DNA of 64,000 bases from Escherichia coli 042 (GTDB taxonomy: Bacteria > Pseudomonadota > Gammaproteobacteria > Enterobacterales > Enterobacteriaceae). The notes under the pieces are model-generated. The model was not told the DNA's origin. It ran no database searches and saw only the letters and a program-made list of their open reading frames with translations. This document shows, piece after piece, positions 49,768 to 61,970 of this stretch. The stretch is from assembly GCF_000027125.1 (NCBI RefSeq), contig NC_017626.1. One strand, given 5' to 3'. The first letter of the stretch is position 1; each line of letters starts with the position of its first letter. The position numbers and the translations under genes are program-made.

Positions 49768-49926
49768 TGTTTTATTCCTGCATTTTTGCCACGAATTGCA
49801 ACTGTCGGGCATGGTCGTCATCAATACGACGCACCCCGCTACCGCGAAAACCTTTGATCCTGAAAGACACGCAGTGCAGTTGGTTAATTAATGTCCGCGC
49901 TTCCCACGGCGCGCCATTACGCTATT

Positions 49927-49960
49927 GCAAATGCAAATAGTTATCAATAATATTATCAAT
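49927..49960. promoter_or_regulatory. Fur box region in divergent fepA / fes promoter
   Basis: gcaaatgcaaatagttatcaataatattatcaat resembles the Fur consensus gataatgataatcattatc. Confidence 0.55.
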
Positions 49961-50009
49961 ATATTTCTGCAATCAATGAAAAATTGCACAGTAAACATGG
50001 GGTTATGGT

Positions 50010-51212
50010 GTGACGGCGTTAAAAGTAGGAAGTGAGAGCTGGTGGCAGTCGAAACATGGCCCGGAATGGCAGCGTCTGAATGACGAAATGTTTGAGGTCA
50101 CTTTCTGGTGGCGTGATCCCCAAGGTTCTGAAGAATACTCGACGATAAAGCGGGTATGGGTCTACGTCACTGGTGTGACCGATCACCATCAGAACAGCCA
50201 GCCCCAGTCGATGCAGCGAATTGCAGGCACCAACGTCTGGCAGTGGACGACACAACTCAATGCCAACTGGCGCGGCAGCTACTGTTTTATTCCCACCGAA
50301 CGCGATGACATTTTTTCTGCACCATCCCCCGATCGCCTCGAATTACGTGAAGGCTGGCGAAAACTATTACCCCAGGCGATAGCCGATCCGCTGAATCCAC
50401 AAAGCTGGAAAGGCGGGCGAGGGCACGCTGTTTCTGCACTCGAAATGCCGCAAGCGCCTCTGCAACCGGGATGGGATTGTCCGCAAGCGCCAGAAATACC
50501 TGTCAAAGAAATTATCTGGAAAAGTGAACAGTTGAAAAATTCACGCCGTGTATGGATTTTTACCACCGGCGATGCAACAGCAGAAGAACGCCCGCTGGCA
50601 GTTTTGCTTGATGGCGAATTTTGGGCGCAGAGTATGCCCGTCTGGCCTGCGCTGACTTCGCTGACCCATCGTCGGCAACTTCCTCCCGCCGTGTATGTGT
50701 TGATCGACGCTATCGACACCACGCACCGCGCTCACGAACTGCCGTGTAATGCGGATTTCTGGCTGGCAGTACAGCAAGAGTTATTACCCCTGGTGAAAGC
50801 TATTGCCCCTTTTAGCGATCGCGCCGATCGCACCGTGGTCGCCGGGCAGAGTTTTGGTGGGCTTTCCGCGCTGTATGCCGGACTGCACTGGCCTGAACGT
50901 TTTGGCTGTGTATTAAGCCAGTCAGGATCGTACTGGTGGCCGCATCGGGGCGGGCAGCAAGAAGGTGTTTTACTTGAGCAACTTAAAGCTGGTCAAGTTA
51001 GCGCCGAAGGTCTGCGCATTGTGCTGGAAGCGGGTATTCGCGAGCCGATGATCATGCGGGCCAATCAGGCGCTGTATGCGCAATTACACCCCATAAAAGA
51101 ATCCATTTTCTGGCGTCAGGTTGACGGCGGACATGATGCGCTTTGTTGGCGCGGTGGCTTGATGCAGGGGCTAATCGACCTCTGGCAACCACTTTTCCAT
51201 GACAGGAGTTGA
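50010..51212 (+). CDS. fes: enterochelin esterase Fes
   Basis: 400 aa ORF (GTG start) MTALKVGSESWWQSKHGPEWQRL... Confidence 0.92.
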   Translation: MTALKVGSESWWQSKHGPEWQRLNDEMFEVTFWWRDPQGSEEYSTIKRVWVYVTGVTDHHQNSQPQSMQRIAGTNVWQWTTQLNANWRGSYCFIPTERDDIFSAPSPDRLELREGWRKLLPQAIADPLNPQSWKGGRGHAVSALEMPQAPLQPGWDCPQAPEIPVKEIIWKSEQLKNSRRVWIFTTGDATAEERPLAVLLDGEFWAQSMPVWPALTSLTHRRQLPPAVYVLIDAIDTTHRAHELPCNADFWLAVQQELLPLVKAIAPFSDRADRTVVAGQSFGGLSALYAGLHWPERFGCVLSQSGSYWWPHRGGQQEGVLLEQLKAGQVSAEGLRIVLEAGIREPMIMRANQALYAQLHPIKESIFWRQVDGGHDALCWRGGLMQGLIDLWQPLFHDRS

Positions 51213-51214
51213 AT

Positions 51215-51433
51215 ATGGCATTCAGTAATCCCTTCGATGATCCGCAGGGAGCGTTTTACATTTTGCGCAATGCGCAGGGGCAATTCAGTCTGTGGCCGCA
51301 ACAATGCGCCTTACCGGCAGGCTGGGTCGTTGTGTGTCAGCCGCAGTCACAGGCGTCCTGCCAGCAGTGGCTTGAAGCCCACAGGCGTACTCTGACACCG
51401 GCGAATTTCACCCAGTTGCAGGAGGCACAATGA
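51215..51433 (+). CDS. ybdZ: MbtH-like protein YbdZ (EntF partner)
   Basis: 72 aa MbtH-like ORF (MAFSNPFDDPQGAFYILRN...) immediately upstream of entF. Confidence 0.85.
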   Translation: MAFSNPFDDPQGAFYILRNAQGQFSLWPQQCALPAGWVVVCQPQSQASCQQWLEAHRRTLTPANFTQLQEAQ

Positions 51434-59571: not shown

Positions 59572-60822
59572 ATGAATAAACAATCCTGGCTGCTTAACCT
59601 CAGCCTGTTGAAAACGCACCCGGCGTTTCGTGCAGTATTCCTCGCTCGTTTTATCTCAATTGTGTCTCTGGGTTTGCTCGGCGTCGCGGTGCCCGTGCAG
59701 ATCCAGATGATGACGCATTCTACCTGGCAGGTGGGGCTTTCGGTGACGCTGACCGGCGGCGCGATGTTTGTTGGCCTGATGGTCGGCGGTGTGCTGGCGG
59801 ATCGCTATGAGCGCAAAAAAGTGATTTTGCTGGCGCGCGGCACCTGTGGCATTGGCTTCATTGGACTGTGCCTTAATGCACTGCTGCCGGAGCCGTCATT
59901 GCTGGCAATCTATTTACTTGGTTTATGGGATGGTTTTTTCGCATCACTTGGCGTTACGGCGCTACTGGCGGCGACACCTGCACTGGTAGGGCGTGAAAAC
60001 TTAATGCAGGCCGGGGCGATCACCATGTTGACCGTGCGCCTGGGGTCGGTGATTTCGCCTATGATTGGCGGTTTATTGCTGGCGACCGGCGGCGTAGCCT
60101 GGAACTACGGGCTGGCGGCGGCGGGCACGTTTATTACCTTGCTACCGTTGTTAAGCCTTCCGGCGTTGCCACCGCCACCGCAGCCGCGTGAGCATCCGTT
60201 GAAATCATTACTGGCAGGATTTCGTTTTCTGCTCGCCAGCCCGCTGGTGGGAGGGATTGCGCTGCTGGGTGGTTTATTGACGATGGCGAGCGCGGTGCGG
60301 GTACTGTATCCGGCGCTGGCTGACAACTGGCAGATGTCGGCGGCACAGATTGGTTTTCTCTATGCGGCGATCCCGCTCGGCGCGGCTATTGGCGCGTTAA
60401 CCAGCGGGAAGCTGGCACATAGTGCGCGACCAGGGTTGTTGATGCTGCTCTCCACGCTGGGATCGTTCCTCGCCATTGGTCTGTTTGGCCTGATGCCGAT
60501 GTGGATTTTAGGCGTGGTTTGTCTGGCGCTGTTCGGCTGGCTGAGCGCGGTTAGTTCGTTGCTGCAATACACAATGCTGCAAACACAAACCCCGGAAGCG
60601 ATGTTAGGGCGGATTAACGGTTTGTGGACGGCGCAAAACGTGACGGGCGATGCCATAGGCGCGGCGCTGCTGGGCGGTTTGGGAGCGATGATGACACCGG
60701 TTGCTTCCGCAAGCGCGAGCGGTTTTGGTTTGTTGATTATCGGCGTGTTGTTATTGCTGGTGCTGGTGGAGTTGCGACGTTTTCGCCAGACGCCGCCGCA
60801 GATGACAGCGTCCGACAGTTAA
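59572..60822 (+). CDS. entS: enterobactin exporter EntS (MFS)
   Basis: 416 aa ORF, 12-TM MFS transporter. Confidence 0.9.
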
Positions 60823-60825
60823 TGC

Positions 60826-61782
60826 TTAAAACAGCGCCTTAAGTCGTTCCAGCACTTGCATGGCGCTGTAGTAATCCAGTCGGAACGTCTCGGTTCCCAG
60901 CGCATAAACCTGCTTGTTTTGTACTGCAGGCAGGTGCGCGAGCAGCGGATTAGCATAAATAGCATCGGCGTCTTTCTGATCACCGGCGAACAGGAATAGT
61001 GACTCACCATTTAACCCTGCAGCCAGATTTTCCCCACCAAGCTGAATGATGTCATGGCGTTTGCCCTGGCTTTGGCTGGCGTTTAACCCTGCGGGCAACT
61101 TCGCCAGCGTAAAGCCGAGTTGTTCCAGCATCTGCCCTTGTGCTGATTCAGGCGTCCAGAGATTGGCACTGTGTGCAGCGGCGGTATAGACAATGGCAGT
61201 GACCGGCTGCGGCGGTAATTTGATTTGCTCTTTCGCCGCCGCCAGTTGCTTATCAAACTGCGCAACCCGCTCTGCCGCTTGTTTCTCATGCCCGGTAATT
61301 TCGCCAAGTTGCGTTAACAGCGACTGCCAGCTTTTGTCGTCGTAATTGATGATTAATGTCGGGGCGATGGTGGAAAGCTGATCGTACAGCGCCAGCGCCG
61401 AATCACCGCCGGTTGCGCTAATTAAAATCAGATCCGGCATTTGCGCGGCAACGGCTTCGGCACTTGGTTCACCGATATAGAGTCGTTGCAATTTGCGTTC
61501 TTTCGCTACCTTGCTCCACTGGCGTAAAAAGCCCTGGTCATCCGCGACGCGGTTATTTGGCGTGGTCGCGCCGCTGGCAATCACCGGAGCATCAATCGCC
61601 AGCAGTGAGCCGGTCAGGGTGACGCTGGTGGAAACAATACGCTGCGGCTGGCTTTCCAGGGTATGAGTGCCACGGCTGTCAGTAATCTGACGCGGCCAGT
61701 CGGCGGCCTGAACTGCGGCTATTCCTGAAAGCAAAAGTCCTGTTAATAGAAGGGCGTTGCGGTAGAGCGGGGCGAGTCTCAC
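60826..61782 (-). CDS. fepB: periplasmic ferric enterobactin-binding protein FepB
   Basis: 318 aa ORF with signal peptide, siderophore-binding protein family. Confidence 0.92.
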
Positions 61783-61922
61783 AAATCAGCTTCCTGTTAT
61801 TAATGAAGTTAATGCTTCTCATTTTCATTGTAACCACAAGCAGATGCAACCCCGAGTTGCAGATTGCGTTACCTCAAGAGTTGACATAGTGCGCGTTTGC
61901 TTTTAGGTTAGCGACCGAAAAT

Positions 61923-61941
61923 ATAAATGATAATCATTATT
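61923..61941. promoter_or_regulatory. Fur box in divergent fepB / entC promoter
   Basis: ataaatgataatcattatt is a near-perfect Fur consensus just upstream of entC. Confidence 0.6.
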
Positions 61942-61970
61942 AAAGCCTTTATCATTTTGTGGAGGATGAT

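Follow-up and report, generated by a model that had tools for sequence, protein, structure and literature searches.

A canonical, apparently intact and Fur-controlled enterobactin locus in a 64-kb Escherichia coli segment with the short form of the fepB–entC spacer

Introduction

The enterobactin (ent/fep/fes) locus and its control by Fur are already known. The question raised by the copy described here is whether it is intact and carries Fur boxes at all three of its divergent promoters, as an initial annotation had claimed, and whether anything in it departs from the K-12 pattern. We analysed a stretch of 64,000 nt, referred to below as the window. Because it matches annotated E. coli genomes in sequence and in gene order, has full-length genes that pass their family models and stands up to tests of its Fur sites, we consider it very probable (roughly 95%) that the window is E. 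coli chromosome with the canonical locus, and we met no contradicting evidence.

EntC, EntB and EntA convert chorismate to 2,3-dihydroxybenzoate (DHB), and the cyclic DHB–serine trimer is built by EntE, EntB (primed by EntD) and EntF (aided by the MbtH-like YbdZ). Enterobactin is exported by EntS, ferric enterobactin is re-imported by the TonB-dependent FepA, by FepB and by FepDGC, and iron is released when Fes hydrolyses ferric enterobactin. The cluster also happens to contain FepE, an O-antigen length regulator of the Wzz type. The genes of the locus fall into six transcription units, which flank three divergent control regions: fepA–entD and fes–ybdZ–entF–fepE, fepDGC and entS, and fepB and entCEBAH. 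In iron-replete cells, transcription is blocked by Fe(II)–Fur dimers bound to operators that overlap the promoters; under iron limitation, Fur departs and the ent, fep and fes genes are expressed.

Gene content and integrity

Several RefSeq genomes match positions 49900–61945 at 100% identity and 29 records do so at 99% or more, and at least 80% of this stretch is held by 5412 of the 5426 complete E. coli genomes. The initial annotation had given this range for the cluster, which leaves out entD–fepA (46732–49767) and entC–entE (61971 onward) although both were named in its text. Annotations carried over from K-12 and from genomes identical in the stretches queried show that gene content and order from entD through the 5′ part of entE are those of an E. 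coli-type cluster (Table 1).

Table 1 Genes and Fur operators of the enterobactin locus, in window coordinates
Feature	Position	Strand	Product or evidence
entD	46732..47352	-	Phosphopantetheinyl transferase, 206 aa; K-12 length, no gaps, 92.3% aa identity; NCBIfam EntD equivalog 417 bits (cut-off 169)
fepA	47527..49767	-	TonB-dependent ferric-enterobactin receptor, 746 aa; FepA-family model 1281 bits (cut-off 493)
fepA/fes Fur operator	49918..49965		K-12 footprint equivalent, 48/48 identical; matrix sites 49939 (18.9 bits) and 49951 (10.0 bits)
fes	50010..51212	+	Enterochelin esterase, 400 aa, GTG start; equivalog 706 bits (cut-off 222)
ybdZ	51215..51433	+	MbtH-like partner of EntF, 72 aa; Pfam MbtH 75.6 bits (cut-off 27)
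entF	51430..55311	+	Serine-activating NRPS, 1293 aa; EntF equivalog 2810 bits (cut-off 2400), model positions 1-1292 of 1292
fepE / wzz(fepE)	55526..56659	+	O-antigen chain-length regulator, 377 aa; equivalog 623 bits (cut-off 300)
fepC	56656..57471	-	ABC importer ATPase; equivalog 611 bits, above cut-off
fepG	57468..58460	-	ABC importer permease; equivalog 646 bits, above cut-off
fepD	58457..59461	-	ABC importer permease; equivalog 625 bits, above cut-off
fepD/entS Fur operator	59443..59511		K-12 footprint equivalent; sites 59486 (19.3 bits) and 59492 (14.5 bits); classical 19-mer 59474-59492, 3 mismatches
entS	59572..60822	+	Enterobactin exporter, 416 aa; equivalog 716 bits (cut-off 324)
fepB	60826..61782	-	Periplasmic ferric-enterobactin binding protein, 318 aa, GTG start; equivalog 520 bits (cut-off 205)
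fepB-proximal Fur operator, ancestral form	61804..61832		Sites 61820 (12.5 bits) and 61814 (8.0 bits); shuffles 10/5000
entC-proximal Fur operator	61917..61965		K-12 footprint equivalent, 49/49 identical; sites 61935 (23.7 bits, best in window), 61929 (16.2 bits) and 61947 (10.7 bits)
entC	61971..63146	+	Isochorismate synthase, 391 aa; equivalog 863 bits (cut-off 624)
entE, 5′ part	63156..64000	+	845 of 1611 nt, 281 of 536 codons; cut by window end

In a gene-by-gene comparison, entD, fepA, fes, ybdZ, entF, fepE, fepC, fepG, fepD, entS, fepB and entC agree with K-12 in length and start codon, with amino acid identities to K-12 of 92.3–99.6% across the complete genes from entD to entC. The 14 complete genes compared over this interval (46732–63146) match their K-12 counterparts in length and start codon and contain no gaps, frameshifts or internal stops relative to K-12, so that alignment did not yield the frameshifts or truncations named beforehand as evidence against an intact cluster. 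Curated NCBIfam equivalog or subfamily cut-offs are passed at full length by EntD, FepA, Fes, EntF, FepE, FepC, FepG, FepD, EntS, FepB and EntC, and YbdZ matches Pfam MbtH. The EntE fragment matches positions 1–280 of the 534 in the EntE model, and truncation alone keeps it under the whole-protein cut-off. The claims of an intact cluster and of expected gene lengths thus hold for the part that is present, entD to entC; entE is cut at 64000, and entB, entA and entH lie beyond that end. These three genes and the 3′ half of entE are present and intact in ECA64, the closest genome, whose annotation is collinear with the window from 12776 onward only, and in Ecol_316.

The locus resembles that of K-12 MG1655 (b0583–b0597; NC_000913.3, 609459–629713) in its genes and their order, orientation, lengths, start codons and 4-nt overlaps, and in the fepA/fes and fepD/entS spacers of 242 and 110 bp, at a nucleotide divergence of about 3%.

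Fur operators in the divergent control regions

We scored the window with a Fur matrix trained on 17 K-12 sites, none of them from ent, which gave a leave-one-out range of 15.2–28.5 bits; a 64-kb Markov sequence served as the null, with a mean maximum of 13.1 bits. The three top scores among the 63,980 positions fall in the three divergent spacers, at 61935 (23.7 bits), 59486 (19.3 bits) and 49939 (18.9 bits), all within the leave-one-out range of genuine Fur sites. Dinucleotide shuffles of each spacer reached the observed score in 2 of 5000 cases for fepA/fes, 5 of 5000 for fepD/entS and 0 of 5000 for the entC-proximal site. Allowing up to 3 and then up to 6 mismatches, the classical 19-mer GATAATGATAATCATTATC matches fepD/entS and both fepB/entC sites, but it does not detect the fepA/fes site, where 6 mismatches are background (38 such matches in the window). 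We therefore relied on the matrix from independent sites.

DNase I footprint coordinates for Fur in K-12 (Chen 2007, Table 3; PMC2189734) were placed on the window via gene anchors. The centres of the window sites coincide exactly with the published K-12 centres at entC −36, fepD −25 and fepA −172 (PMC2189734). The sites also share the 7-1-7, overlapping-hexamer architecture of the information-theory operators of Chen et al. 2007, with the palindrome AATGATAAT-n-ATTATCATT and overlapping sites 6 bp apart, and differ from them in that the fepB-proximal cluster is weaker than that of K-12. The whole fepD/entS spacer is identical to K-12 (110/110), and about 80 enterobacterial species retain the entC-proximal site at a distance of roughly 153 nt upstream of fepB. 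A minus-strand promoter-like site (49976–49947) overlaps the fepA/fes operator; a sigma-70 consensus scan returned weak or partial promoter calls only and was not used for promoter assignment. With the best three matrix scores in 64 kb and footprint sequences identical to K-12, the Fur boxes that the initial annotation had reported at fepA/fes, fepD/entS and fepB/entC are borne out, and its description of an ordinary Fur-controlled core region agrees with the K-12 gene comparison, the family models, the genome survey and the Fur-site tests.

In strain CFT073, the direct Fur regulon has been shown experimentally to include fepB, entCEBAH, entS, fepA, fepDGC, fepE and entD (PMC7157518). From CFT073, which has the same operators, and from the nine-strain pan-regulon, we infer that Fur would occupy these sites in the strain of the window and repress them in an iron-dependent manner. 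The strain would also produce enterobactin. The strain thus appears, from its sequence, to carry a standard, functional and Fur-controlled enterobactin system like nearly all E. coli, and the significance of this beyond bookkeeping is small.

The fepB–entC spacer

The spacer between fepB and entC is 188 bp in the window (61783–61970) and 374 bp in K-12, a 186-bp indel that touches the fepB-side operator and that the initial annotation had overlooked. The position of the gap was set by multi-species alignment, as automatic alignment misplaces it. TAA at 61808–61810 marks the point at which K-12 carries a 186-bp BoxC/TMECO insertion. The additional K-12 sequence is a palindromic repeat of the dispersed type; it contains BoxC/TMECO motifs 7 and 8 and is bordered by duplicated TAA. 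BoxC, PIT or TMECO intrastrand-triplex repeats are variably present between E. coli strains (PMC4666352), and the K-12 DNA missing from the window contains an inverted pair of them, TMECO nos 7 and 8 (PMC4666352). The family signature, a C-rich block and two G-rich blocks (CCCTCGCCCC..GGGGAGAGGG..GGGTGAGGGG), is found in K-12 at 624,579–624,676 and is absent from 61783–61970 of the window, which is the empty-site allele.

Could the short spacer instead reflect a 186-bp deletion that took away some of the fepB leader and Fur operator, so that fepB is wrongly regulated or inefficiently translated? The window does have 186 bp fewer than K-12, the junction lies inside the K-12 fepB footprint and the 17.5-bit K-12 site is reduced to 8.0 bits, but spacers of 187–189 bp with the same junction sequence occur in E. 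albertii, other Escherichia lineages, Citrobacter, Enterobacter, Klebsiella and Salmonella. Because length and junction are shared so widely, the 188-bp spacer is the ancestral state. The short form is also found in about half of complete E. coli genomes, with K-12 and the other half carrying the insertion, a split of roughly 50:50 that agrees with the strain-variable presence of BoxC/TMECO repeats, and the identity of the extra DNA as such a repeat with duplicated TAA argues against deletion as well. The Shine–Dalgarno sequence, AU-rich tract and GTG start of fepB are all kept in the window. CFT073 has the same short spacer, with 2 substitutions, none of them in Fur sites, and yet has fepB in its direct Fur regulon, which argues against damaged fepB regulation in short-allele strains. 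On the outgroup and CFT073 evidence we reject a deletion that harms fepB regulation, and consider it very improbable; the indel is explained by an ancestral spacer and an already known repeat insertion in K-12, and does not amount to a defect of the window.

It is less credible still that AT-rich intergenic DNA has produced the Fur-box-like sequences, above all the one at fepA/fes, by chance and that they are not operators. The 6 mismatches of the classical 19-mer at fepA/fes, as at 38 other places in the window, would fit such a reading, but the independent matrix ranks this site third of all positions, only 2 of 5000 composition-matched shuffles reach its score, and its 48 positions are all identical to the K-12 sequence footprinted with DNase I. 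A cluster that looks intact might also be silent through missense changes, likeliest in EntD (92.3% identical to K-12) or YbdZ (93.2%), which are noticeably more divergent than their neighbours. Both proteins lie comfortably above their family-model cut-offs, however, positions 49900–61945 recur unchanged in the best-matching genomes and at 99% or more in the 29 records, and two of these genomes are annotated with the same EntD protein (WP_019842002.1), which speaks against a private loss-of-function allele. We regard silencing of this kind as highly unlikely, and retain the reading of a canonical, apparently functional locus.

Possible consequences of the spacer allele for fepB

The two spacer alleles differ at the fepB-proximal operator. 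Its core, TGCTTCTCATTTTCAT, is invariant from the window to Salmonella, and the window shares 23 of the 31 positions of the K-12 fepB footprint, the remainder being replaced at the insertion junction. The window scores 12.5 and 8.0 bits here and K-12 scores 17.5 and 12.5 bits. The cluster is weaker in the window because the end of the inserted element contributes part of the best K-12 site and happens to complete a stronger Fur site (17.5 versus 8.0 bits). Since the fepB-proximal site is weaker than in K-12, repression of fepB could differ quantitatively between the two.

The leaders differ as well. Going by conserved −35- and −10-like hexamers, we take the K-12 fepB transcript to start upstream of the insertion and to have a leader of about 217 nt. 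Predicted folding energies are −7 kcal/mol for the short allele, which lacks the hairpin, and −101 kcal/mol for K-12. One possible reading, which we hold tentatively and think rather less probable than its opposite, is that the K-12 fepB operator and its structured leader of about 220 nt are non-native, made when the BoxC/TMECO palindrome inserted a few bases past the start of fepB transcription, and that short-allele strains, with an ancestral leader of about 30–40 nt, might differ in FepB level or in the iron threshold of derepression. The structural differences between the alleles are observed in the sequences; any phenotypic consequence is speculative. As the K-12 fepB leader and Fur footprint include strain-variable repeat DNA, K-12 regulatory annotation should be transferred with caution: in the half of E. 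coli with the ancestral spacer, the K-12 values for fepB coordinates, leader length and operator strength do not apply.

Further differences from CFT073 and K-12

Beyond the shared short spacer, the CFT073 locus (NC_004431.1, 651687–671786) has an identical fepD/entS spacer and 6 substitutions in the fepA/fes spacer, none of them in the footprint. It differs from the window in having one hokE copy and different protein alleles (other WP_ accessions). Relative to K-12 MG1655, the window has no IS186 between hokE and entD, and its hokE/sokE module is duplicated. Tandem Repeats Finder, with its 500-bp limit, missed this duplication, which self-BLAST detected with a period of about 504 bp.

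Gene content and integrity of the enterobactin locus

A megablast search of complete RefSeq E. coli genomes matched 49900-61945 in 5417 of 5426 genomes, with at least 80% of the stretch matched in 5412; among the matches listed, ten records were 100% identical to it. On sequence matching, we conclude that this interval belongs to the core E. coli chromosome. The gene map came from an identical genome annotated in RefSeq (window = locus + 41899) and was set against K-12 MG1655. The initial annotation had placed the whole cluster within 49900-61945; that range runs from fes through fepB and takes in all three control regions, but leaves out entD-fepA and entC-entE, both of which it named, because the map puts both outside it.

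Features of the enterobactin cluster and its flanks in window coordinates (gene positions are transferred annotation; gene scores are NCBIfam bits)
Feature	Position	Strand	Score	Cut-off	Remark
tRNA gene	12747-12820	+			
sok	45808-45964				Rfam match
hokE ORF	45956-46108				
sok	46312-46466				Rfam match
hokE ORF	46458-46610				
entD	46732-47352	-	417	169	
ES036 (CssrF) sRNA	47411-47452	-	40.5 bits	37.6 (gathering)	Rfam match
fepA	47527-49767	-	1281	493	family model
fepA-fes footprint	49918-49965				48/48 identical to K-12
Fur matrix rank 3, fepA/fes	49939		18.9 bits		
fes	50010-51212	+	706	222	
ybdZ	51215-51433	+			
entF	51430-55311	+	2810	2400	
fepE	55526-56659	+	623	300	Wzz(FepE)
fepC	56656-57471	-	611	497	
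fepG	57468-58460	-	646	422	
fepD	58457-59461	-	625	428	
Classical 19-mer, fepD/entS	59474				3 mismatches
Classical 19-mer, fepD/entS	59480				4 mismatches
Fur matrix rank 2, fepD/entS	59486		19.3 bits		
entS	59572-60822	+	716	324	
fepB	60826-61782	-	520	205	
Classical 19-mer, fepB/entC	61808				4 mismatches
fepB putative promoter	61849-61844; 61826-61821				TTGCAT; GAAAAT; 17-nt spacer
entC putative promoter	61881-61886; 61904-61909				TTGACA; TAGGTT
entC footprint	61917-61965				49/49 identical to K-12
Classical 19-mer, fepB/entC	61923				4 mismatches
Fur matrix rank 1, fepB/entC	61935		23.7 bits		
entC	61971-63146	+	863	624	
entE	63156 to window end (64000)	+			5' part

Each gene was translated and globally aligned with its K-12 counterpart: 14 of 14 complete genes equal K-12 exactly in length and share its start codons, including the GTG of fes and fepB, with no gaps or internal stops. 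Amino-acid identity to K-12 ranged from 92.3% (EntD) to 99.6% (FepC). Curated NCBIfam models were passed over essentially full length; YbdZ had no NCBIfam match and was recognized as Pfam MbtH (75.6 bits; cut-off 27). For the ent and fep genes inside the window, neither the alignments nor the NCBIfam/Pfam models revealed a frameshift or truncation, and this part of the cluster is intact as claimed. The window end cuts entE at codon 281, and entB, entA and entH lie outside it. All four are intact in ECA64, the closest complete genome, which matches window 40000-64000 at 100.0% except for an IS200C located between pheP and ybdG and absent from the window at ~41.5-41.7 kb.

Divergence from K-12 was uneven along the cluster. 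EntD is the most divergent protein. For the entE fragment, identity is as low as 94.2% in nucleotides but 99.3% in protein, which makes nearly all of its differences synonymous. Recombination histories that differ from one part of the cluster to another may account for this unevenness.

Fur operators at the divergent promoters

Fe(II)-Fur holds six transcription units repressed under sufficient iron. Once these are derepressed, EntC, EntB and EntA make 2,3-dihydroxybenzoate. EntD primes EntB, and the resulting holo-EntB joins EntE and EntF with YbdZ in assembling enterobactin, which EntS exports. The ferric complex is re-imported by FepA with TonB, FepB and FepDGC, and its iron is freed by Fes. 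FepE belongs to the Wzz type of proteins and regulates O-antigen length.

Scanning the whole window with the classical Fur 19-mer, GATAATGATAATCATTATC, gave four places only with 4 or fewer mismatches. The best match in the fepA/fes spacer had 6 mismatches, a level also reached at 38 further places; on the consensus alone, a site there is unsupported. We therefore scored the window with an independent matrix built from 17 K-12 Fur sites, none from the ent cluster (fhuA, gpmA, fiu, efeU, sufA, ydiE, yoeA, cirA, mntH, exbB, nfeF, bfd, ryhB, sodA, fecA, fecI and fhuF), placed by gene-relative centres (Chen et al. 2007, PMC2189734, Table 4) on the sequence of NC_000913.3. The training sites aligned without gaps to AATGATAAT-n-ATTATCATT, and the symmetric 21-nt matrix gave leave-one-out scores of 15.2-28.5 bits. 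Among 63,980 window positions, its three best sites lie in three different divergent spacers, and all of them have overlapping secondary sites at a distance of 6 bp. In first-order Markov copies of the window the maximum averaged 13.1, with 17.6 as its 95th percentile. When the spacers were shuffled by dinucleotides, a control for the AT content of each, the observed maximum was reached in 2/5000 (fepA/fes), 5/5000 (fepD/entS) and 0/5000 (fepB/entC) cases.

The three site centres are exactly those published for K-12 (entC -36, fepD -25 and fepA -172), and the scores are nearly equal to the K-12 values of 23.1, 19.4 and 18.7 (PMC2189734). We mapped the K-12 DNase I footprints (PMC2189734, Table 3; NC_000913.2 coordinates + 777, with gene anchors as a check) onto the window and found the fepA-fes and entC footprints unchanged; the entire fepD/entS spacer is identical to K-12 (110/110). 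Like K-12, the window has two distinct operators in the fepB/entC region. Independent matrix, shuffles and footprint identity thus bear out the Fur boxes proposed at all three divergent promoters. Genes, order, integrity and operators at the expected places with footprint-identical sequence are established for the window, and Fur occupancy and siderophore production would be expected in E. coli 042. The locus is already known and, as initially judged, an ordinary one of low interest; the only corrections concern the coordinates, the limits set by the window edge, and K-12 rather than E. coli 042 bearing a repeat insertion.

From invariant columns of an eight-way alignment and our own reading of them, we assign conserved putative promoters to entC, immediately upstream of its Fur site, and to fepB, overlapped by the site at 61820.

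The top matrix score outside the ent cluster was ATACAAAAATAGTTATCAAAA at 24139-24159 (centre 24149; 14.6 bits), in an AT-rich, IS-containing region. This match is probably not meaningful, since its score is within chance reach of the 64-kb null.

The fepB-entC spacer

The fepB-entC spacer is 188 bp in the window (61783-61970) compared with 374 bp in K-12. The corresponding junction, 61809/61810 at TAA 61808-61810, falls within the K-12 fepB footprint, and the two overlapping fepB-side Fur sites score 8.0 and 12.5 bits in the window versus 17.5 and 12.5 bits in K-12. One reading is that the short spacer is a deletion harming fepB control. We rejected it on the spacers and uninterrupted junction of outgroups, the dispersed-repeat nature of the K-12 insert and genome counts. 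Among fepB loci collected from 80 species, with the spacer measured in each, 187-189 bp was usual in E. albertii, two other Escherichia lineages, Citrobacter, Enterobacter, Klebsiella, Raoultella, Leclercia and Kosakonia, and Salmonella diarizonae had 183 bp. The survey also found a strong Fur site ~153 nt upstream of fepB, and in many species, Escherichia and Citrobacter outgroups included, a moderate one ~38 nt upstream. In the eight-way alignment, GAAGT/TAATGCTTCTCATTTTC is unbroken in the window and every outgroup, and K-12 carries 186 additional bases flanked by a duplicated TAA.

The K-12 insert is a nested palindrome and a dispersed repeat, with a per-genome median of 6 places. It holds TMECO (BoxC/PIT) motifs 7 and 8 (624,579-624,614 and 624,676-624,641; PMC4666352, Table 1), from a family variably present across E. 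coli strains (PMC4666352). The same TAA is occupied in E. whittamii by a 100-bp element that shares homology with the outer arms of the K-12 insert. The long form occurs in 2755 of 5425 complete E. coli genomes, and the others, like the window, match the right-hand 161 bp only. Outgroup lengths, the uninterrupted outgroup junction, the palindromic repeat and the genome split show that the window's allele is ancestral and that of K-12 derived; the window's spacer differs from K-12's because the insertion sits in K-12. In K-12 and E. whittamii the best fepB-side Fur site is partly built from the end of the inserted element, and the insertion gives K-12 a longer fepB leader and a predicted hairpin of about -100 kcal/mol as well as the stronger site.

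The K-12 fepB leader RNA has a predicted fold of -100.7 kcal/mol (z = -4.7), and no significant structure is predicted for the short leader of the window (-7.1 kcal/mol, z = +1.3). According to secondary literature (PMC7769764), K-12 fepB mRNA is translated from a GUG and carries an AU-rich translational enhancer; the AU-rich tract, Shine-Dalgarno and GTG are all kept in the window.

Evidence on whether the ancestral arrangement works comes from CFT073, which shares the 188-bp spacer, with two differing positions, both outside the Fur sites. CFT073 and the window have identical fepD/entS spacers and the same fepA/fes footprint region. Its experimentally defined direct Fur regulon includes entCEBAH, entD, entS, fepA, fepB, fepDGC and fepE (PMC7157518), and the fep and ent operons were Fur-regulated in all strains of a nine-strain pan-regulon (PMC10164565).

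Neighbouring features

The hokE/sokE toxin-antitoxin module is present as a tandem duplicate (45740-46711), with two 470-bp copies, 97.9% identical and offset by ~504 bp. The hokE-entD interval is without an IS element in the window; it has IS186B in K-12 and an IS421-family element in Ecol_316. The ES036 (CssrF) match occupies the entD-fepA spacer, past the fepA stop and ahead of the entD start, at a position where the K-12 annotation has no ncRNA.

Collinearity with ECA64 starts at 12776, exactly at a tRNA gene; phage tail genes and ompT are annotated ahead of the collinear stretch in ECA64, and window 1-12775 had no match to the fetched ECA64 stretch. The tRNA, the phage tail genes and the unmatched first 12.7 kb suggest a tRNA-linked prophage or island junction at ~12.7 kb, variable among close relatives. 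The window and ECA64 also differ by a ~770-bp structural difference (~25203-25971) in an ISAs1/ISEc1-rich region upstream of cusS.
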